The notes below the pieces were generated by a model. That model searched no databases, was not told where the DNA came from, and saw nothing but the letters and a program-made list of their open reading frames with translations. From positions 1 through 17,144 of the forward strand of contig JBHIDR010000018.1 in assembly GCA_046760225.1 (NCBI GenBank): a DNA stretch of 17,144 nucleotides, given 5' to 3'. The stretch is from Candidatus Aenigmatarchaeota archaeon. GTDB taxonomy: Archaea; Aenigmatarchaeota; Aenigmatarchaeia; Aenigmatarchaeales; JACQIB01. The translations under genes and the position numbers were made by a program. Positions 1,331 through 17,144 of the stretch are shown piece by piece; positions within the stretch are counted from its first letter, which is position 1; every line of letters starts with the position of its first letter.

Positions 1331-1654
1331 ATGTTCGAATCTGAGGAAAAAAAGGACGCCAAAAGTACATTGGAAGTGTATGAAAGCAAAATCGAAAAGT
1401 TTTCTTCTGTTGTAGAGAGTATGAAAAACGGTGATTATAATGGAGACTCTGATGAAATACAAGCTACTTATGACAATCTTGCTACGTTAGAAGGAAACAG
1501 CCTAGGAATGCAAATAGATTTAACGAAGAGGGGATACAAGGATTTGGCAGAAAAGGCTGCTGGACTTTATACTCAAGCACGAAGGATGAAAGCGATTGTG
1601 GAAAGAACTGCAGAAAAAGAAGAAGTAAGTCTGGATGATGACCCTGAAGATTAA
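1331..1654 (+). CDS. Hypothetical helical protein with acidic C-terminal tail
   Basis: 107-aa ORF with a GTGAT Shine-Dalgarno-like motif upstream; 4-nt convergent overlap (TTAA) with the dph6 stop. Confidence 0.7.
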   Translation: MFESEEKKDAKSTLEVYESKIEKFSSVVESMKNGDYNGDSDEIQATYDNLATLEGNSLGMQIDLTKRGYKDLAEKAAGLYTQARRMKAIVERTAEKEEVSLDDDPED

Positions 1655-2325
1655 TCTTTCCCTACAAGCTTGACATCAAGGATGATGTATTCACCGGAGT
1701 TGCCTTGCCATCTTTTTTCAGCGTCCCTGATTTCTATCCTCTTCTTGAAGAGCGGGCAGTCAAGGACAACACTATCATATTCGCCCCCCTCTCCTACAAG
1801 GCTTATTGCATGCTTCTTTTTAAGTTCAAGAAGTTTCTCTAGTGTTTCTTTGCCAAGCTTTTTTCCCAGCCATTCAATATCAAGTCCCTCAGCAGCCACG
1901 CTAGTAATAATTATCTCGAACTTGTTTTCGATTAGTTCTTCCAGGTATCTTTTCGTGTCTGTGTGCCAGAGTGGCGCTAGCAGCTTGAGCCCGAGCTTTT
2001 CGCATACGCTTGCTACGCGCGAGCGCTGGTACTCGCTTGCAATTGCACCGCATACCACGCCTTCCACACCCAGGCCGCTCAGTGCGTCCTCCAGATCCTT
2101 CACTTCCTTCTCCTTTTCACCCGAACTGAGCTTGCTCACGAGCCTGATTCCCATGACTTCTGCCTGCTTGAGCACCATGCCTATGTTCACTGTATGGTAC
2201 ATGTAGCTGTCAGGCCTTCTGGCAATCACTGTGACCAGATATTTTATCTCATGGCCGCTCTGCACAGCCTTCCAGACTGCGGCAAGGCTGTCCTTTCCAC
2301 CGGAAACAAGGGCTGCCAGTTTCAT
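1651..2325 (-). CDS. dph6: Diphthine--ammonia ligase (PP-loop ATP pyrophosphatase, Dph6 family)
   Basis: N-terminal SGGKDS PP-loop, SYMYH, GAIASEYQ, L.PLW and GEGGEY motifs. The ATG at 2325 is preferred over the GTG at 2334, which serves as the SD (GAGTGA). Confidence 0.92.
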   Translation of the reverse strand: MKLAALVSGGKDSLAAVWKAVQSGHEIKYLVTVIARRPDSYMYHTVNIGMVLKQAEVMGIRLVSKLSSGEKEKEVKDLEDALSGLGVEGVVCGAIASEYQRSRVASVCEKLGLKLLAPLWHTDTKRYLEELIENKFEIIITSVAAEGLDIEWLGKKLGKETLEKLLELKKKHAISLVGEGGEYDSVVLDCPLFKKRIEIRDAEKRWQGNSGEYIILDVKLVGKD

Positions 2326-2351
2326 TGTTATCACTCTTTCGTGAAATTGCC

Positions 2352-2390
2352 TTTAAATACTATTTAAATATGTTTAAATACTATAAAATA
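2352..2390. promoter_or_regulatory. Divergent promoter region with tandem TATA boxes between dph6 and tbp
   Basis: TTTAAATA at 2352, 2363 and 2373 and TATAAAAT at 2382; TATTTAAATA (2361-2370) is a perfect palindrome. Confidence 0.65.
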
Positions 2391-2439
2391 TACACGCTCA
2401 AAAAATTTACCAAATCACAATCAAACAGGAGGTTGTAAA

Positions 2440-2976
2440 ATGGCATTCAGAATCAAGATAGAGAACGTTGTTGCATCTGCTTCTCTTGGTGTTCCTGTAA
2501 GGCTTGAGAAGATTGTTGCCGGACTGGAAGGCATAGAGTACGAGCCAGAGCAGTTCCCAGGGGTTGTGATGCGGCTCAAGGACCCGAAGGCAGCTGCCTT
2601 GATTTTCTCATCAGGAAAAATAGTCTGCACAGGAGCAAAGAGCCCGAAGGATGCAAAGCTGGTGATAGGGAAGATAGTCACGAAGATAAGGAAGCTCAAG
2701 ATAAAGGTACCAAGGGACCACAAGATAAAACTGGAAAACATTGTTGCAAGCGCCAAGCTGGACAGAGAACTTAATCTTGATCATATTGCGTTCACATTGG
2801 AGAACACTGAATATGAACCAGAACAGTTCCCAGGGCTGGTCTTTAGAATGGATGATCCCAAGGTCACGTTCCTGCTTTTCGGCTCTGGTAAGATAATATG
2901 TACAGGCGGCCGGAGCATAAAGGACGTTGAGAGAGCTGTTGCAAAGCTTGACAAAAGGCTGAAGAGACTGAAATAG
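2440..2976 (+). CDS. tbp: TATA-box-binding protein
   Basis: Two direct protein repeats (IENVVASA...EYEPEQFPG...LIFSSGKIVCTGA / LENIVASA...EYEPEQFPG...LLFGSGKIICTGG); strong SD AGGAGGT at 2427-2433. Confidence 0.98.
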   Translation: MAFRIKIENVVASASLGVPVRLEKIVAGLEGIEYEPEQFPGVVMRLKDPKAAALIFSSGKIVCTGAKSPKDAKLVIGKIVTKIRKLKIKVPRDHKIKLENIVASAKLDRELNLDHIAFTLENTEYEPEQFPGLVFRMDDPKVTFLLFGSGKIICTGGRSIKDVERAVAKLDKRLKRLK

Positions 2977-2994: not shown

Positions 2995-5900
2995 ATGGCA
3001 GAAGCAGAGAGATTTGAAGAATTTTTTAAGCAGTTCTATGAGAAGGAGATGATGAGCGCTGCAGCCCATGGAAGGAAATCAATTGAGATTGACTTCTCCC
3101 TTCTTGAGAAGTTCGACCATATGCTTGCAGACAAGCTGCTGAACGATCCTGGAGTGATAATTGATGCAGCAAGAATGGCAATAAAGGCAGTGGACCTGCC
3201 AGAAGGCTCGGTCAGTCTGGAGCCCAGGTTCAAGAACCTGCCAGAGGAAAGTACAGTGAGGATAAGGAACCTCAGGGCAGAGCACATGGGAAGGTTCCTT
3301 AGCATAGAAGGTGTTGTGAGGAGGGCCAGCGAGGTCAGACCGCAGATATACCTTGCCAAGTTCCAGTGCCCTGCATGCGAGAACATGATTGATGTCGAGC
3401 AGAAGGACAGGACAATAAAGACGCCGTCAGTATGCGAGTGCGGCCAGAAAAGCGGGTTCACCATGGTTGACCAGAGGCTCTTTGACATGCGATGGCTCAC
3501 AATAGAGGAGCCATTCGAGGTTGCCACTGCAGAAAGACCCGGGATGATTAATGTTTATCTCAAGAACGACCTGACCACGCCAGAAATGCAGAGGAAAACA
3601 GACCCGGGCAACAGACTGAAGATAAGCGGGACAATAAAGGAAATAAAAAGGATAACGAGAGGAAAGGCAAAGACACAGCTGGAGATTTACCTGGATGCAA
3701 ATCATATTGAGTCTACTGAGATAGAGTGGGAAGAGGTGAGAATAACGCCTGAGGACGAGAGGAAGATAAGGCAGATGGCCTCTGACCCGGAAATCTACAA
3801 GAAGATTGTTGCATCAGTTGCACCCTCAATGTACGGCATGGAGGAAGTAAAGGAGGCAATTGCATACCAACTGTTCGGCGGTGTGCCCCAGTACCTTCCT
3901 GATGGCACAAGAATAAGGGGTGATGTCCATGTGCTTCTTGTTGGTGATCCGTCCATTGGAAAAACACAGATACTGAAGCTTGTTTCAAAGTCCATGCCAA
4001 GGGGCAAGTATGTTTCAGGAAAAGGGGTCACTGGGGTTGGTCTTTGCACAATCCCTGATTCTTTAATCACTTTGAAGAACGGCGAATTAATTAAAATAGG
4101 AAATCTGGTTGAAGACAACCTAAGGAGAGGTAAGAGAGAAATTAAAGATGGGATTTTTATAGCAAAAAAACCAGAGGAAATGGAAATCCTAGCATTTGAC
4201 CAGAAGGAGCTTAAAATCAAACCATTAAAAATAACCCAATACTGGAAAATCAGGGCACCAAAAAAACTTATGAAAATTAAGACAAGAACTGGAAAGGAAG
4301 TTACAGTAACACCCAATAATCCAGTACCTGTAATCAAGAACGGGAAAGTCAAATGGAAAGAAGCAAAGAGCTTGAAGGAGGGCGAATTTATCGCTACTCC
4401 AAGATCAGTAGCAAACCAACCAGAGTACTCTAACACTTCTATTCTAAATTTTTTGGATAAAACCGCCCATCTGCTAAATGCCCAAGACATTATAAAACAT
4501 ATCCTCGAAAGGGTTAGGGAACGTGGAACTATAAGGGATTTTGCAAGGAAGTTGCAAATTGATGAGAATCAATTATGTCATTCTTGGAGATTAGGCAAAG
4601 GTTCACCACAGCTAGATATTCTGGAAACGATGTGCAACCATGTAAATCTAGAACTGGAAGAGGTATTGCCAGAGAAAATGCAGCTTATGCAGTATAATGG
4701 ACATGTCATAAACTTATCCAAATCCTTCACAACTAAACTATTATATTTAATAGGATTGGTTGCTGGAGATGGTAATGTATCAAGAACGCCTCATGGTGGC
4801 TTTTGCATAGAATTCCATTCTGCTGAGAAAGAATTACTGGAAAAATTTTATACTGTTTGTCAAAATGAACTGAATATAGAACCACATTATTACAAGCATC
4901 CAGATAGAATAGCCTATTGTAGCATAAATTCAAAAATTGTTGCCCAGTTGATGCATAAGCTTGGTGTACCAAATGGAAAGAAATCCCAGCATATTGAGAT
5001 TACGCAAGAACTATCAAACCTTCCAAATGAACTAGTAGCTGCATATTTACACGGCTTGTTTGATACAGACGGATGTGTTGTTGAGCCAAAAAACAAAGGT
5101 TCAAAATTTGTAAGCTTTAGCACATCCTCAAAAGCATTTGCAAAGGGGCTCCAATTACTTTTGCTGAGATTTGGCATACTGTCATCCATGAGAAAAAAGG
5201 CCGGGAAAACGACCTACATAAAAAACAGACCTGTTATATCAAAGGATAAATATGAAATAGAACTAAGGGGCCTTGAAAATCTGTTAAGATTCAAAGAAGA
5301 GATTGGTTTTGGATTCTCCAAAAAGAAAGAAAAACTAGAAAAAATAATCAGAAAAATATCAAAAACCAATACCAATATAGACATAGTACCCGAGATTTCA
5401 AATCTTTTGGCTTCTGCACGCAAAGAGCTAGGAATTTCAGCTAAAACACTGTATGGCTATAAAAATTATTCATATGAAATGGGTAGAAGAAAGCCATCAC
5501 GTCAACAGCTGGCAAAAATAGTTGGGAAGATGAAATCCTTTGGCAACAGCAAAACTATTGAAAGGTTAGAAAAATTAGCTAAATCAGATATCTTCTGGGA
5601 CGAGATAAAGGATGTTGAAATAGTCAAAAATAAGCAGTTCGATTATGTTTACGATGTTACTGTTGAGGATGAACATTCACTCATAGCTGATGGCATAATA
5701 ATCCATAACACCGCAACAGTGACCAAGGATGAGGAATTCATGGGAGGCTGGGTGCTTGAGGCAGGTGCAATGGTGCTCTGCCACAAGGGAATAATTGCAA
5801 TAGACGAGTTTGACAAGATGCACAAGGACGACCAGATAGCCATGCATGAGGCGATGAGCACACAAAGCTATCATGGAGATACGAAGATAACTCTTTCGGA

Positions 5901-8292
5901 TGGCTCAATAAAATCTATTAGAAACATTGTGGAGAATATGTTGGAAAAAAATAAAGGTAGTGTTATTAATGGTCAGGGGTGTGAGGTACTTCTTCTACCA
6001 GAAAATGAATGCATAGAGCTGATGGCAACAAATTTTAATAAAATTTTCAGTAAAAGGATTACGCGAGTTAGCAGACATACTGCACCAAAATATTTTTTTG
6101 AAATAGAAACTGATAGTGGAAGGAAAATCATAGTCACTCCAGAACACCCATGTTGGGTCATGGTGGATGGAAAAATTGTATGTTTGCCAGCAAGTAAGTT
6201 AAAAAGGAGTAACTGGGTTCCTGTTCCATTAAATTTACCAATCGAAGGTCAAAAGCAAAATATTAGTATAGTTCAGAAAGATATAGCTGTCAATCGTGCG
6301 TCTAATCATATTTCTATACCAAGAAATTGCCCACAGCTTTTCAAATTTGCCGGCTATATGCTGAGTGAGGGTAGCTACGAACTTAATAAGGGAATCAAAA
6401 ACGGCATAAACTTCACCAATTCCAATCCACTATTGCTTAATGATTTCGTGACCACAACTACTGGTTTGTTTGGCATAGAACCCTATATCCATATAAGAGA
6501 AGGAAAGACCACTATGGCCAGATACATTTCTAGGGAACTTTATAATTTTGTTAATAAAATCGGACTATCTGGAATGGCTTTTGAAAAGAAAATTCCAGAT
6601 ATTTTCCTCATGGGAGCGAAAGATGATGTCAAATTGCTTCTTCAGAAGCTTTTCGATGGGAATGGCGGCTTGATATCCAAACAAAGAGGGATGGAGATAG
6701 TTTATACCTCCAAAAGTAAAACTCTTGCTTTACAAATTTCAGATCTCTTGCTAAGATTTGGAATCCCGAGTAAAATAAGAGAAACTCAATATAAAAATAA
6801 AATTTATTTTAGAGTTGCGATAACAGGTAAAAAGTACCTAAAAAGTTTTCAGGAGCATATAGGATTTTCAGACGAAAAAACTAACAGGAAGCTTGCTGTG
6901 TATGTTAAAGGAGAGACATCCTTAAGGACAAATCTCTGGGGCACGATTCCACAAATCGGAGCGCAGATTGCAGATATCTTACGAAAACTTAAACTTCCAC
7001 AGAAAAGAATTGTTGGTTGGAATATAACAGAATATGAAAGATACAAGCTTAATTTTTCAAGAACGGTGTTAGGAAAGGTAATTAAAAGAGTAGAGCGTTA
7101 TCTTGCTGAAATTGAAAGGCAAATAGAAATCATTGAAAATCTTCCTTCTGAAAAAAGGACGATAAAGAAATTGCGACGTATTAGGACTGCCTATAGAATT
7201 AGTACGCAACAAGTTGCAGAAAAATTAGGATTATGTCATCAATTGATTTCTTTTAGGGAAATTAAATCACCAACAAGAAAGTTTGCTATCAGATACAAAC
7301 AGGCACTTGTAGATATCTTCAAGGACATGCTTCAGCAAAGGTTTGAAATTGGGAGAATCAAGAATCTTGTAAATGCAGATGTAGGCTGGGTTAAAATAAA
7401 AAATATCAAGAAAGTAGAGAATAAAAATGAAAAATTTGTTTATGATGTTACAATTCCAGGTCAAACGTTTATTTCCAATGGTATGGTTCTACATAATACA
7501 ATATCTGTTGCAAAGGCCACGATTGTTGCTACCCTGCCTTCACAGACAGCTGTGCTTGCAGGAGCAAACCCAAAGTACAGCAGGTTCGACCCGTACAGGC
7601 CAATAGTGGAGCAGATAGACATCCCGGACACCCTGCTCAGCAGGTTTGACCTGAAGTTTGTTCTCAGGGATGTCCCGGACAAGGCAATGGATGAGAAGCT
7701 CGCAACATATGTTGTTGGTGCAAGGCTCAGGCCTGATGATGTCAGGCCGCTGATAGCTCCTGAGATGCTAAGGAAATATATTGCATATGCAAGGCACAAC
7801 TGCTTCCCGAAGATGACACCTGAGGCAGCAGAGAGGATAAAGAACTTCTATATTACCATGAGGGGGATGTACGCGGGTGAGGAAAGGCCCACGGTGCCAA
7901 TAACGCTCAGGCAGTATGAGGCGCTGATGAGGCTTGCTGAGGCATCAGCAAAGATAAGGCTGAGTAACAAAGTGGAGGTAGAGGATGTAGATAGGGTTAT
8001 AAGGATTATGGAATATTCTATAAAGCAGCTCGGATTTGACAGGGAGACAGAAAAGATAGACATTGACAGGACAGAGGGCGTGCCGAGCTCGCAGAGGAGG
8101 AAGATACATTCAATAATAGACATAATAGAGAGGCTGGAGAAGACAATAGGAAAGCCGGTTCCCATTGAGGAGATAAAGGCAACTGCACAGGACGAGGGAA
8201 TAAAGGAAAGCGATACAGAGGACATGTTGCAGAGGCTGAAGAAAGAAGGCATAATATTCGAGCCAAAGGCGAACTTTGTGCAAAAATTATGA
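2995..8292 (+). CDS. mcm: MCM replicative helicase precursor with two inteins (spliced product ~666 aa)
   Basis: Zn finger CPAC...CEC, Walker A GDPSIGKTQ, Walker B IAIDEFDKM, arginine finger LLSRFDL, sensor 2 PITLRQ and a C-terminal winged helix. 1765 aa minus 555 and 544 aa of inteins leaves 666 aa. Confidence 0.98.
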   Translation: MAEAERFEEFFKQFYEKEMMSAAAHGRKSIEIDFSLLEKFDHMLADKLLNDPGVIIDAARMAIKAVDLPEGSVSLEPRFKNLPEESTVRIRNLRAEHMGRFLSIEGVVRRASEVRPQIYLAKFQCPACENMIDVEQKDRTIKTPSVCECGQKSGFTMVDQRLFDMRWLTIEEPFEVATAERPGMINVYLKNDLTTPEMQRKTDPGNRLKISGTIKEIKRITRGKAKTQLEIYLDANHIESTEIEWEEVRITPEDERKIRQMASDPEIYKKIVASVAPSMYGMEEVKEAIAYQLFGGVPQYLPDGTRIRGDVHVLLVGDPSIGKTQILKLVSKSMPRGKYVSGKGVTGVGLCTIPDSLITLKNGELIKIGNLVEDNLRRGKREIKDGIFIAKKPEEMEILAFDQKELKIKPLKITQYWKIRAPKKLMKIKTRTGKEVTVTPNNPVPVIKNGKVKWKEAKSLKEGEFIATPRSVANQPEYSNTSILNFLDKTAHLLNAQDIIKHILERVRERGTIRDFARKLQIDENQLCHSWRLGKGSPQLDILETMCNHVNLELEEVLPEKMQLMQYNGHVINLSKSFTTKLLYLIGLVAGDGNVSRTPHGGFCIEFHSAEKELLEKFYTVCQNELNIEPHYYKHPDRIAYCSINSKIVAQLMHKLGVPNGKKSQHIEITQELSNLPNELVAAYLHGLFDTDGCVVEPKNKGSKFVSFSTSSKAFAKGLQLLLLRFGILSSMRKKAGKTTYIKNRPVISKDKYEIELRGLENLLRFKEEIGFGFSKKKEKLEKIIRKISKTNTNIDIVPEISNLLASARKELGISAKTLYGYKNYSYEMGRRKPSRQQLAKIVGKMKSFGNSKTIERLEKLAKSDIFWDEIKDVEIVKNKQFDYVYDVTVEDEHSLIADGIIIHNTATVTKDEEFMGGWVLEAGAMVLCHKGIIAIDEFDKMHKDDQIAMHEAMSTQSYHGDTKITLSDGSIKSIRNIVENMLEKNKGSVINGQGCEVLLLPENECIELMATNFNKIFSKRITRVSRHTAPKYFFEIETDSGRKIIVTPEHPCWVMVDGKIVCLPASKLKRSNWVPVPLNLPIEGQKQNISIVQKDIAVNRASNHISIPRNCPQLFKFAGYMLSEGSYELNKGIKNGINFTNSNPLLLNDFVTTTTGLFGIEPYIHIREGKTTMARYISRELYNFVNKIGLSGMAFEKKIPDIFLMGAKDDVKLLLQKLFDGNGGLISKQRGMEIVYTSKSKTLALQISDLLLRFGIPSKIRETQYKNKIYFRVAITGKKYLKSFQEHIGFSDEKTNRKLAVYVKGETSLRTNLWGTIPQIGAQIADILRKLKLPQKRIVGWNITEYERYKLNFSRTVLGKVIKRVERYLAEIERQIEIIENLPSEKRTIKKLRRIRTAYRISTQQVAEKLGLCHQLISFREIKSPTRKFAIRYKQALVDIFKDMLQQRFEIGRIKNLVNADVGWVKIKNIKKVENKNEKFVYDVTIPGQTFISNGMVLHNTISVAKATIVATLPSQTAVLAGANPKYSRFDPYRPIVEQIDIPDTLLSRFDLKFVLRDVPDKAMDEKLATYVVGARLRPDDVRPLIAPEMLRKYIAYARHNCFPKMTPEAAERIKNFYITMRGMYAGEERPTVPITLRQYEALMRLAEASAKIRLSNKVEVEDVDRVIRIMEYSIKQLGFDRETEKIDIDRTEGVPSSQRRKIHSIIDIIERLEKTIGKPVPIEEIKATAQDEGIKESDTEDMLQRLKKEGIIFEPKANFVQKL
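4045..5709 (+). mobile_element. Intein 1 (555 aa) with LAGLIDADG homing endonuclease, inserted at GVGL/TATV
   Basis: Starts with Cys (CTIPDSLI) and ends YVYDVTVEDEHSLIADGIIIHN followed by Thr+1. LAGLIDADG helices LIGLVAGDG and YLHGLFDTDG. Removal restores the MCM motif GL-TA.V.KDE. The DNA is visibly more AT-rich than the exteins. Confidence 0.95.
5866..7497 (+). mobile_element. Intein 2 (544 aa) with LAGLIDADG-like domain, inserted at AMSTQ/TISVAKA
   Basis: Starts with Ser (SYHGDTKITLSDG), has block B TPEHP, and ends FVYDVTIPGQTFISNGMVLHN followed by Thr+1. Endonuclease helices FAGYMLSEG and LQKLFDGNG. Removal restores HEAM..Q-TISVAKA. Confidence 0.95.
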
Positions 8293-9538: not shown

Positions 9539-9946
9539 ATGCAAAGCTATGAGGAGCTTCTAAAAAAGGCAATGGAGAAGATGCCAAAGAAGAAAGAGGG
9601 CGGGGAAAGGTTTGAGGTTCCCAAGGTAGAGAGCATAATCCAGGGGCACCAGACAATAATAAGGAACCTTGGCCAGATAGCTGAGGCCCTCAGGAGGGAA
9701 CAGAAGCACCTGCTCAAGTACCTTTCAAAAGCCCTGGCTGCGCCGATAAATGTTGATGGCACAAGGGCAATAATACAGGGAAAAATACCGCAGAGGACCA
9801 TACAGAAGAAGCTGGAGAACTATGTGAAGGAGTATGTTCTCTGCAAGGAGTGCGGGAAGCCAGACACGAAGATAGAAAAGGAAGACAGGATTTCTTTCCT
9901 GAAATGCGAGGCCTGCGGTGCTAAAGGCGCCGTGAAAGGCATTTAA
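9539..9946 (+). CDS. eif2b: Translation initiation factor 2 subunit beta (aIF2beta)
   Basis: YEELL..A...ERFEVP...TIIRN...LRR...HLLKYL and a C4 zinc ribbon CKECGKPDT...CEACGA. Confidence 0.95.
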   Translation: MQSYEELLKKAMEKMPKKKEGGERFEVPKVESIIQGHQTIIRNLGQIAEALRREQKHLLKYLSKALAAPINVDGTRAIIQGKIPQRTIQKKLENYVKEYVLCKECGKPDTKIEKEDRISFLKCEACGAKGAVKGI

Positions 9947-13794: not shown

Positions 13795-14019
13795 ATGGCA
13801 AGAAGAAGGAAAAGGAGAATGAAAGGGCGGAAATCGCCATTACCTGCGATTATACTCCTGATAATAGCGCTTGTTGCCCTGATATATTCAGAATATACCA
13901 AGACCACGAGCTATTTTGTATACAGTGGTGGGGCTGCTTCTGCAGGCCTTGGCATAGGGCATGCAATAGCCATAATCTGCCTGCTCGGAGCAGCTGTTTG
14001 CTTCTTCAGAATGAAATGA
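13795..14019 (+). CDS. Small membrane protein (basic N-terminus, two TM helices)
   Basis: 74-aa ORF with an Arg/Lys-rich start and two hydrophobic helices; TTAAATAT TATA-like element ~25 nt upstream. Confidence 0.7.
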   Translation: MARRRKRRMKGRKSPLPAIILLIIALVALIYSEYTKTTSYFVYSGGAASAGLGIGHAIAIICLLGAAVCFFRMK

Positions 14020-15016
14020 ACCTCATGAAAGGGAGCTCTCTTTTCACTATCCTTTCTGAGCAGTGCATTTCCTTTGCAAGTTTTTCTACAAGTTCCCTGT
14101 TCTCAGTCCTTGGGTAGAATGCAGGCGGCCTGTAGGGCGTGAAGCCCCTGCTCGGCTTCCTGAGTGCGCTCAGTCCTGCAAGCATGTCAACTGATTTCTT
14201 GCTGATTCTTCTTAACAGGTCTGCCTTGCTCAGTATGTCAAAAGCAGCTGCCCTCTGCATGGGGTCTGCAAACTCCCTTGCAAGGTTTTCCTCGACCCAG
14301 AAGAATATCTCAAATGGGTCCTTTTCGCAGCTCTCTATTGCATTGAGTGCGGTTTTCACGTTTCCTGACTTGAAGAGCGTTCTGAGTGTCTCGAATATGT
14401 TGCCCTCCCTGTCTCTTGAAAACCCGATTCCTGCAAAGCTCTCCAGGTCAAGGAGCGCTGCCCTTATATCGCCTGCAGCAGAATAGGACAGGCTCCTTAT
14501 GGCCTGCTGCCTGTGCGGTATTCCTTCCTTTCTGCATATCTCGTGCAGCATCTTCTCTATTTCAGCTGCCTTGACCCTCTTGAACTCCAGCATGTCGCAT
14601 GCTTTTCTCAGGAATTTGAACCTTGGATGATAGGGATTGTCCACTATCAGGACAACAGGGTATATGCTTTCCTTTATCAGCTTTGTGAGCAGCGCCATGT
14701 TTGTGTTTTCTGCTCCATCCACAGCCACTATCTTTCCTTTCTTGAACAGGGATGCCTGTTTCAGGGAAGGTATCATGCTGGCCAGGCTGTCCTTCTCATC
14801 AGAGCCATCAATCTCAATCAGGTCCAGCTTTCTTTCCCTTGCCAGTGCATACAATACAGAGTTCTTTCCAACACCAGGCGGGCCATGCAGGATAAGCGCC
14901 TTGCCCTTTCTCCAGGAGTTGAACCATATCACCAGTTTCTGCACAGAGCTTTTCTGGCCTATTATGTCTGCAAGGGTCTGTGGCGCATATTTTTCAGTGA
15001 AAGAACTATATCCCAT
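14006..15016 (-). CDS. rfcL: Replication factor C large subunit-like protein (degenerate AAA+ motifs)
   Basis: From ATG 15016: TEKYAP.TL.DIIGQ (RFC boxes), LHGPPGVGK, GDIRAALLDL and WVEENL..EF. The upstream extension to 15157 overlaps hjc and is rejected. Length 336 aa. Confidence 0.85.
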   Translation of the reverse strand: MGYSSFTEKYAPQTLADIIGQKSSVQKLVIWFNSWRKGKALILHGPPGVGKNSVLYALARERKLDLIEIDGSDEKDSLASMIPSLKQASLFKKGKIVAVDGAENTNMALLTKLIKESIYPVVLIVDNPYHPRFKFLRKACDMLEFKRVKAAEIEKMLHEICRKEGIPHRQQAIRSLSYSAAGDIRAALLDLESFAGIGFSRDREGNIFETLRTLFKSGNVKTALNAIESCEKDPFEIFFWVEENLAREFADPMQRAAAFDILSKADLLRRISKKSVDMLAGLSALRKPSRGFTPYRPPAFYPRTENRELVEKLAKEMHCSERIVKRELPFMRFISF

Positions 15017-15079
15017 GGGATAATAGTTATGCGATAAAGTATTTATTGTTCCTTGCCATAATTTGTTTTGTGTGATTCC

Positions 15080-15409
15080 ATGGCTGTGAACAAGAAGGGC
15101 CACAGGAGAGAGAGGCAACTGGTGGAGAAGCTTGTAAAGGAAGGCTGGGTGGTCCACAGGGTTGCAGGCTCAGGGCTGAAGGACAGTGCAATATGCGACC
15201 TGATAGCAATAAAGCATGGGATAACGCACCTCATAGAGGTCAAGAGCAGGAAGAAGGTGTTCTATACAAAGGAGCACCATCCGCAGTTGAAGGAGATGAT
15301 CTCTGCTGCAAAGAAGTGCGGTGCTAGGGCAATGCTGGCTGTAAAGCTGGATTACAGGGAGTGGCAGTTCATTGACCTGCACGAGGGCATACCGCACAAG
15401 GTTGGTTAG
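15080..15409 (+). CDS. hjc: Archaeal Holliday junction resolvase (Hjc family)
   Basis: KG.RRERQL...GW.V.RVAGSG...DLIAIK....LIEVKS, a PD-(D/E)xK signature; ATG 15080 preceded by GTGTGA. Confidence 0.9.
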   Translation: MAVNKKGHRRERQLVEKLVKEGWVVHRVAGSGLKDSAICDLIAIKHGITHLIEVKSRKKVFYTKEHHPQLKEMISAAKKCGARAMLAVKLDYREWQFIDLHEGIPHKVG

Positions 15410-15942: not shown

Positions 15943-16352
15943 TCTGTCACCTGCAGAAGGATTGTTATTTCCTGGTTGTCTGTCTGCAGGAGCGCTACAA
16001 GCTCACGCAGCAAGTCGCTTGCTGCCTTGTTCGAGCGCACACCTATTGTTGCGTTGTCAATGAAATCAGACTTTGTTACAACAATATTATTTTTGTCTGT
16101 CACCTTTGCCTCAAATGAGCCAAAGGCGAAGATTACGTCCTCATTACCTGCTGTGCCTATTGTTAATGAGAGCTTTTTCCTGTCCCTTATTGCTGTCTTG
16201 AAGTCATCAGGCAGGTCAGCTGCAGCTGCGCTTGCTTCAACAGCAATGACAGAGTCGTCAAACACTTCTTTTCCCTTGGTTATTACTATCTTTTGAGGGT
16301 CCCTTGCTGAAATCTTTGGGTTGCCCTTTGCCCTGATTATGAATTCTATCAT
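15939..16352 (-). CDS. DUF371-like protein (divergent)
   Basis: IRAKG.P.I.A...I.ITK, VVTKSDFID..TI.VRSNKAASDL.RELV..L resembles the archaeal DUF371 pattern (recognised from memory); ATGA overlaps on both sides. Confidence 0.7.
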   Translation of the reverse strand: MIEFIIRAKGNPKISARDPQKIVITKGKEVFDDSVIAVEASAAAADLPDDFKTAIRDRKKLSLTIGTAGNEDVIFAFGSFEAKVTDKNNIVVTKSDFIDNATIGVRSNKAASDLLRELVALLQTDNQEITILLQVTE

Positions 16353-16684
16353 CTTACCCTCTCCTCAAGCTTCAGTCTTAATTTGTTCACTTCACTTTTT
16401 TCCAGGCCGTGTGGAGTGGCTGACAGCTCATCCCCAATTTCCCTGAGTATCCTGAATGCTCCTTCCTTGCCTGTTTCTGTTTCACCTGCCCTCTGCTTTG
16501 CAAGGGGCGTTAGTTCGATTCTGCTTACCTGGCAGAGGTACTCGGCTGCTGGAAGAAGCTCCTTGCCTGCTTCACCCTCCTCCATCCTCTTCAGCAGGCG
16601 GTGAAGGTACTCCCTTGCTATTTCCTTTTCCTGCCTCCTTCCAGGCTTGCCCCTCCTTATCTTTCCTTTTGCAGGCTTGACCAT
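16349..16684 (-). CDS. Hypothetical basic protein
   Basis: 111-aa ORF, first gene of an ATGA-coupled three-gene run, divergent from the tRNA. Confidence 0.65.
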   Translation of the reverse strand: MVKPAKGKIRRGKPGRRQEKEIAREYLHRLLKRMEEGEAGKELLPAAEYLCQVSRIELTPLAKQRAGETETGKEGAFRILREIGDELSATPHGLEKSEVNKLRLKLEERVR

Positions 16685-16703
16685 GACTATAAGATAAGCA
16701 AAC

Positions 16704-16714
16704 TTTTATATAAA
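16704..16714. promoter_or_regulatory. TATA box of the tRNA gene (possibly bidirectional)
   Basis: TTTTATATAAA ends ~24 nt upstream of the tRNA 5' end and lies ~20 nt upstream of the divergent ORF start. Confidence 0.65.
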
Positions 16715-16737
16715 TTCAAAGTTCATTCTGAAATTAC

Positions 16738-16907
16738 AGCGGGGTGGGGCAAAATACCAGGAATTCACTTGGTATTCCCTAAGCCTGGAGTGCCCGTCGA
16801 TCCTGAAAAGGAGCGGATGGCTCAGAGGGATTGTCCTTGGATACCCGAAACAGTAGACTGCTGTCTGCTGTGGGTAAAGGTCAAGAGTTCAAATCTCTTC
16901 CCCGCTA
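16738..16907 (+). tRNA. Initiator-Met-type tRNA body with four BHB introns; spliced anticodon reads CAG
   Basis: Exons 16738-16751, 16783-16799, 16819-16826, 16843-16848 and 16878-16907 join into a 75-nt cloverleaf: acceptor AGCGGGG/CCCCGCT plus A73, D stem GGGC/GCCC, anticodon stem TCGGG/CCCGA, loop CTCAGAA, variable loop AGGTC, T arm AAGAG-TTCAAAT-CTCTT. CCA is not encoded. Confidence 0.92.
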
Positions 16908-16911
16908 TCCA

Positions 16912-16919
16912 TTTCTTTT
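16912..16919 (+). terminator. Oligo-T tract, putative archaeal terminator of the tRNA
   Basis: TTTCTTTT 4 nt after the discriminator base. Confidence 0.5.
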
Positions 16920-17009
16920 ATTGACGTTGTAGGCTGATTGACGTTATGAATTAATTATACATTTAAATACTTCGTGTATATAGTTAATTTAGTTAATTGG
17001 GTGAAATGA

Positions 17010-17144
17010 ATGGCTAATTTCAAGGAGATACTTGCAAAGAAAAAACCCATAATCTGGGAAGAAGTCCAAAAATATTTATTAAAGGAAGGACCATTTGGGT
17101 TCCCAGAGATAGTAAATGAATATCCAAAGAGGCAGGGGAAATAC
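17010..17144 (+). CDS. Hypothetical protein, N-terminal fragment (runs off the window)
   Basis: ATG 17010 preceded by SD GGTGA; frame open to the window end (MANFKEILAKKKPIIWEEVQKYLLKEGPFGFPEIVNEYPKRQGKY). Confidence 0.6.
   Translation, partial: MANFKEILAKKKPIIWEEVQKYLLKEGPFGFPEIVNEYPKRQGKY

Follow-up and report, generated by a model that had tools for sequence, protein, structure and literature searches.

Archaeal initiator tRNA-Met carries an A1:U72 pair at the end of the acceptor stem and three consecutive G:C pairs (29-31:39-41) in the anticodon stem, and its CAU anticodon is recognised by MetRS. Initiators with changed anticodons are reportedly laboratory-made, as in the engineered amber-reading initiator tRNAs of E. 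coli. Multi-intron tRNA genes whose introns are framed by BHB motifs are well known in the Thermoproteales. Marked disruption of tRNA genes has been described in DPANN lineages, where undetected disrupted genes are said to remain (PMC5829648, PMC4090602). A passage of the tRNAscan-SE 2.0 paper (PMC8450103) gives three introns per tRNA gene as the archaeal maximum, and any comparison made here with a three-intron limit is with that passage. A literature search, with subscription papers outside its scope, turned up no archaeal tRNA gene with four introns, and a search that combined tRNA introns, Aenigmatarchaeota and splicing endonuclease returned nothing.

The locus described here bears on both subjects. 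It lies in the window, the whole 17,144-nt stretch of DNA that was analysed, whose host, known from hydrothermal vent metagenomes, is a small-genome DPANN archaeon related to Aenigmatarchaeota-labelled genomes. An earlier note had read in it an initiator-tRNA body with a CAG (CUG-reading) anticodon in place of CAU. The locus is very probably a normal initiator tRNA gene in function, set apart from other archaeal ones only by its four small introns. The coordinates of its parts, of its surroundings and of related features elsewhere in the genome are collected in Table 1.

Table 1. Parts of the initiator tRNA gene, neighbouring genes and related features of the genome (window positions unless a contig is named)
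Feature	Location	Strand	Remarks
TATA-box-like TTTATATA	16705-16712	+	about 30 nt upstream of mature 5' end; seen in sequence
Whole pre-tRNA, initiator type, positions 1-73	16738-16907	+	170 nt; no CCA encoded
Exon 1	16738-16751	+	acceptor 5' strand, positions 8-9, D-stem 5' strand, A14
Intron 1	16752-16782	+	31 nt; D loop, about position 14/15
Exon 2	16783-16799	+	D-loop remainder, D-stem 3' strand, G26, positions 27-29 (TCG)
Intron 2	16800-16818	+	19 nt; position 29/30
Exon 3	16819-16826	+	G30, G31, loop positions 32-37 (window: CTCAGA)
Anticodon	16823-16825	+	window CAG; contigs of sequencing runs CAT
Intron 3	16827-16842	+	16 nt; canonical position 37/38
Exon 4	16843-16848	+	A38, anticodon-stem 3' strand CCCGA (39-43)
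Intron 4	16849-16877	+	29 nt; position 43/44
Exon 5	16878-16907	+	variable loop AGGTC, T arm, acceptor 3' strand, A73
T-rich tract TTTCTTTTATT	16911-16922	+	seen in sequence
Diphthamide synthase	1651-2334	-	domain match
TBP	2440-2976	+	domain match
MCM helicase gene	2995-8292	+	1,765 aa, interrupted by inteins
aIF2-beta (eIF-5_eIF-2B domain)	9539-9946	+	domain match
RFC-like AAA+ clamp-loader subunit	14006-15157	-	domain match
tRNA_int_endo domains	G000 C2: 22994-23254, 24053-24328	+	open frames 166, 203 aa
tRNA-like spans	C16: 9513-9705, 10621-10809; C4: 13894-14086	-	counted on reverse complement

The acceptor stem and T arm were located with a scan of our own, the exons were joined by coordinates, and the product was passed to ARAGORN. 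The acceptor stem pairs AGCGGGG (16738-16744) with CCCCGCT (16900-16906), so that 1:72 is A:U, and A73 follows at 16907. The D stem (GGGC/GCCC) includes G11:C24, the variable loop AGGTC has 5 nt, and the T arm reads AAGAG-TTCAAAT-CTCTT. The anticodon stem, TCGGG/CCCGA, sets its three G:C pairs (29-31:39-41) against the loop and is assembled from three exons: G29 (16799) lies beyond the second intron, 19 nt upstream of G30 and G31 (16819-16820), the 5' half of the loop follows as CTCAGA (16821-16826), and A38 with CCCGA (16843-16848) stands 3' of a 16-nt intron. The joined exons (75 nt) form in ARAGORN a complete class-I cloverleaf with all stems paired: acceptor 7 bp, D 4 bp, anticodon 5 bp and T 5 bp. 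The program names this product Leu(cag), from the anticodon alone. Letters and cloverleaf thus bear out the initiator body of the earlier note (A1:U72, G11:C24, the three G:C pairs, the short variable loop and A73) and its exclusion of tRNA-Leu, since the variable loop has 5 nt, position 37 is A and the orthologues of the body are initiator genes. The reading of the anticodon also holds for the assembled letters, which when spliced at 37/38 give the loop C-U-C-A-G-A-A, with CAG at 16823-16825. Nor can these letters be spliced into a proper CAU loop, as the note had already argued: once the other three introns are removed, single deletions in the anticodon region that keep a loop of 7 nt and 4 or more stem pairs yield the anticodons CAG, GGA, CGA and CAA only.

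Standard tools pass over this gene. ARAGORN reports 0 tRNA genes in the window, and misses this one in the whole genome even when introns are allowed. Rfam has 0 matches in the window at its gathering score (29) and, with E up to 10, a mis-registered tRNA match of 14.5 bits only. ARAGORN and Rfam at its gathering score miss the gene in the window because four introns interrupt it; a gene that standard tRNA finders miss would leave the genome annotated without an initiator tRNA. Upstream, TTTATATA, which we take to resemble the archaeal TATA consensus, is a probable archaeal promoter, and similar A/T-rich, TATA-like stretches lie at an equal distance from the orthologues L002 and L004. Downstream, TTTCTTTTATT would probably act as the transcription stop.

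All four introns have two 3-nt bulges around a 4-bp central helix, the arrangement that defines the BHB motif; the helix joins the final bases of the exon to the intron's 3' end, and the splice sites lie in the bulges. For introns 3 and 4 the exon side of the helix is made of bases 32-35 and 38-41, so that it competes with the anticodon stem. In intron 1 the central helix GGGG/CCCT is fully paired (4/4), with bulges CA|A and AA|G and a hairpin of 9 bp; in intron 2 it is CCGT/GCGG, again 4/4, with bulges CG|A and AT|G and a 4-bp hairpin, TCCT-GAAA-AGGA. Intron 4 is equally regular: central helix ACCC/GGGT 4/4, bulges GA|A and AA|A, hairpin 9 bp. Intron 3 is better called BHB-like, its central helix CTCA/TTGG pairing at 3/4 (a C34-T mismatch) between bulges GA|G and AT|A, and its hairpin is short (GGA-TTG-TCC, 3 bp). 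A central-helix mismatch occurs at the equivalent place in intron 3 of the orthologue L002. Position 16825, the disputed base, belongs to the 5' bulge of intron 3, so that the motif is the same with G or with T. In an independent search, all BHB-like candidates in the 170 nt were listed, up to four were combined, and products that fold as a cloverleaf were kept; the best class-I solution was exactly these four introns.

The gene would be transcribed as a 170-nt precursor, from which the archaeal splicing endonuclease would excise the four BHB introns, in the D loop and at 29/30, 37/38 and 43/44, and RtcB would join the exons into a tRNA of 75 nt. The genome encodes candidates for both activities. 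PF01974 matches twice, at adjacent splicing-endonuclease genes on contig C2 (85 and 66 bits), a pairing which suggests a two-subunit enzyme, the type that PMC5829648 links with non-canonical introns. The RtcB ligase gene (PF01139, 497 bits) is on contig C35, where the match at 1477-2834 (+) falls in two pieces, the N-terminal one (profile positions 3-52) read through 2 TAG codons; an inserted intein, a frameshift or a fault of the assembly could account for the split.

Does the organism carry the G that makes the anticodon CAG? The window and the deposited genome (contig C18, identical to the window) both have G at 16825. Four runs of one hydrothermal-vent study contain the window, and these were compared with it over 16300-17144 as per-run Logan consensus contigs. 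In X1 an 18,583-nt contig (depth 21.4) spans all 845 bases, and its sole difference from the window is T at 16825. In X2 an 11,085-nt contig (depth 20.8) spans 16300-16907 (608 bases), again with T at 16825 as the sole difference. A 333-nt contig of X3 (depth 3.3) also has T there, together with five further differences, all downstream of the tRNA, and in X4 a contig break over 16795-16850 leaves the base uncovered. The independent per-run assemblies that cover the position therefore agree on T (3/3), which gives the loop its canonical initiator form, with CAT. Both from one study, X1 and X2 contain 99% of the sampled words of the window and are probably the source data of the deposited assembly; the point stands even so, because an independent assembly of the source data lacks the G. 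No RNA run containing the window is listed among the sequencing runs, and a pattern for this exact locus with N at the disputed base had 0 matches in metagenome contigs. Very probably, then, the deposited assembly is wrong in this one base, the G at 16825, or has at most taken a rare allele into its consensus, and with the same high confidence G is not the base that the population carries. Of the explanations listed in the earlier note, a single T>G error at this position is the one that the run contigs and the orthologues described below agree with, and T at 16825 in reads or relatives is the observation by which that note had proposed to overturn its own reading.

Consensus contigs drop minority variants, so a rare G allele could escape them, and the next reading to be weighed is that the G is a real minor allele, T36G in the sole initiator gene of a sub-population, which the assembler happened to write. 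The deposited assembly does have the G, consensus contigs can hide such variants, and the locus varies between strains, with several differing low-depth contigs just downstream. Against this, the two contigs of about 21-fold depth have T and are otherwise identical to the window, an assembler normally writes the majority base, and no strain-type differences accompany the G when the window is set beside X1 and X2. This reading is improbable. The tRNA of such an allele would probably be poorly charged by MetRS, and the allele would be deleterious or transient rather than a device for recoding. That the G is fixed in a rare strain whose only initiator tRNA reads CUG is very unlikely; if true, nature would have produced a non-AUG initiator, and both charging and the choice of start codons would have shifted to match.

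Strain variation is evident just beyond the gene. In the assembly graphs a branch point coincides exactly with the tRNA's 3' end: the main contig of X2 stops at 16907 and two records continue with unlike sequence, while a second strain downstream shows 27-29 differences in about 220-280 bases (X2 and X4). The X3 contig stops at 16995, with five of the second-strain differences, and the window's own contig terminates 237 bases after the tRNA. These observations point to strain-variable DNA adjoining the tRNA gene, from 16907 to 17144. The wider context is an archaeal information-processing neighbourhood (Table 1), in which the P-loop domain of the MCM helicase contains two Intein_splicing and four LAGLIDADG_3 stretches.

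Related genomes also bear on the disputed base. Orthologues were sought in 41 genomes of 0.3-2 Mb (the window's own, G000, and 40 relatives from its genus, family and order), with two directed pattern searches and one pattern scan of genome contigs. The contig scan gave 50 loci, 40 of which were dropped as chance matches, mostly in bacterial G+C-rich sequence; the 10 tRNA loci kept included three duplicates (L051 = L002, L056 = L004, L064 = L003). In all, 15 distinct orthologues were obtained (L002, L003, L004, L006, L013, L016, L019, L024, L026, L031, L033, L040, L062, L069 and L070), six from the search of the 40 relatives, seven from the contig scan and two from genomes G002 and G004. In a spliced alignment every one of these genes, all from related DPANN archaea, has the loop CTCATA with anticodon CAT (15/15), and A1:U72 and the three G:C pairs at 29-31:39-41 are common to them all. 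A CAG conserved in relatives, which the earlier note had thought worth looking for, is thus found in none of the 15. No initiator tRNA was found in G001, a genome of the same genus, or in G005 (87% and 83% complete), where pattern matches were coding-like sequence or tRNAs ending ..CCCCGCAC.

With the window these orthologues share exon sequence and the introns at 29/30, 37/38 and 43/44, and the number of introns among them ranges from 1 to 5. L031 and L002 have four each; L003 probably has five, the fifth, in the T loop, having been read by eye where part of the T arm aligned poorly. Intron 1 is missing from L004, L016, L069 and L070, and is similarly placed in L006, L013, L024 and L031. The 3' end of intron 2 reads ..CGGAT|GG in 11 of the 15 and ..TGAAT|GG in L013, and in L003 the G of this intron that pairs with T27 has become A, with the pair retained. 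Intron 4, ending ..GGGTAA, is present in L026, L031 and L040, and there is none in L004, L016, L033 or L062. The orthologues suggest, independently of the window, that the introns are real splice units.

The more radical reading is that of a working CAG initiator that starts proteins at CUG, or one whose G36 is corrected after transcription. Taken by themselves, the letters of the window would suit it, with an intact initiator body, a promoter-like TATA and intact splice motifs around CAG. It is opposed by the T of all three covering runs, by the CAT of every orthologue and by the start codons of the genome itself. These were counted as NTG triplets that follow GGTGA at a distance of 4-9 nt, begin a reading frame of 100 or more codons and have a stop no further than 15 codons upstream, in the deposited assembly (851,505 bases in 83 contigs, 83% complete). 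ATG accounts for 64 of the 78 starts, GTG and TTG for 5 each and CTG for 4, in a genome where CTG triplets (36,147) outnumber ATG triplets (33,042). ATG, which makes up 64/78 of the starts preceded by a ribosome site, is the codon at which this organism begins its genes and for which a CAU initiator is required; the enrichment of CTG starts that a CUG initiator might have brought is not seen. A second initiator gene to serve AUG was not found in the assembly either: the scan for T arms with 7-bp acceptor stems gave 34 spans, and A1:U72 occurs in the window's gene only. Since the assembly, which is 83% complete, yielded no other A1:U72 tRNA gene, a non-AUG anticodon in this one would leave the cell no known AUG initiator. 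A scan of metagenome contigs for a CAG form of the intron-2-bearing initiator gene had 0 matches, a weak result, being without a CAT-form positive control. Together, these results leave the dedicated CUG-initiating tRNA proposed earlier unsupported and its editing variant unneeded, and both are most unlikely. The idea of a decaying extra copy, to which the frequency of mutated anticodons among tRNA pseudogenes (noted in PMC8450103) lends some colour, can be dismissed as exceedingly improbable, since the assembly yielded no further gene of initiator type, all stems are perfect, the four BHB motifs are intact and the odd base is missing from the contigs of the runs.

What remains is a locus where one assembled base differs from the contigs of the runs, which makes it a normal tRNA-iMet(CAU) gene. 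In all likelihood 16738-16907 is the initiator methionine tRNA gene of this genome, its true anticodon CAU, and its product would be charged with methionine and start translation. The CAG first noticed is real in the assembled sequence; the assumption that the G is the organism's base fails. Before recoding is claimed from a lone odd base of a metagenome-assembled genome, the reads should be consulted.

The whole genome was also scanned for anticodon loops with CAT or CAG and an intron at 37/38. Most of the output was noise, with a single credible CAT tRNA, at C6:21468-21595 (+), whose acceptor stem begins with G1:C72, so that it is not the initiator. At this locus a CTCATG loop stands on a 5-bp stem and position 37 is followed by an intron of 22 nt; the gene probably encodes an elongator Met or Ile2 (CAT) tRNA and contains further introns. 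ARAGORN calls it Asp(atc) with an intron, and the calls of this program on the intron-bearing tRNAs of the genome are unreliable. No credible tRNA-Leu(CAG) gene appeared in the loop scan, a result made unreliable by multi-intron genes and 83% completeness. A second probable four-intron gene, tRNA-Arg(TCT), spans 178 nt on the minus strand of C2, at 18413-18590 counted along the reverse complement; if C2 is the contig of 52,881 bases, this corresponds to about 34292-34469 of the plus strand. Its best solution has four BHB introns, which score 7, 7, 7 and 6 of 7 for the motif, and the Rfam tRNA model matches it as a 19-bit fragment only. Three further tRNA-like spans, 189-193 nt long, lie on the minus strands of C16 and C4, and their acceptor stems and T arms are good. 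Solutions with at most four introns were unconvincing for these, the best needing odd variable arms or loops, and five or more introns, or disruptions of another kind, may be present.

How does the gene compare with the systems already described? It resembles the archaeal initiator tRNA-Met (CAU) in A1:U72, G11:C24, the G:C pairs of the anticodon stem, the variable loop and A73, and differs from it by the assembled G at 16825 and the four introns. With tRNA-Leu(CAG) it shares the assembled anticodon only, its variable loop having 5 nt and its position 37 being A. A CAG initiator, if real, would have been like the engineered amber-reading initiators in that the anticodon sets non-AUG initiation, and a natural CUG-reading initiator would have been a remarkable departure in how translation begins; here, however, the changed base is missing from the contigs of the runs. 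There is also a likeness to the multi-intron tRNA genes of the Thermoproteales and other archaea with broad-specificity splicing endonucleases, with which the gene shares short BHB introns at canonical and non-canonical positions; splicing-endonuclease and RtcB genes are present in this genome too. Set beside those genes it differs in having four introns, and its modest but real interest is one of structure: four BHB introns here, four in L031 and L002, and probably five in L003.
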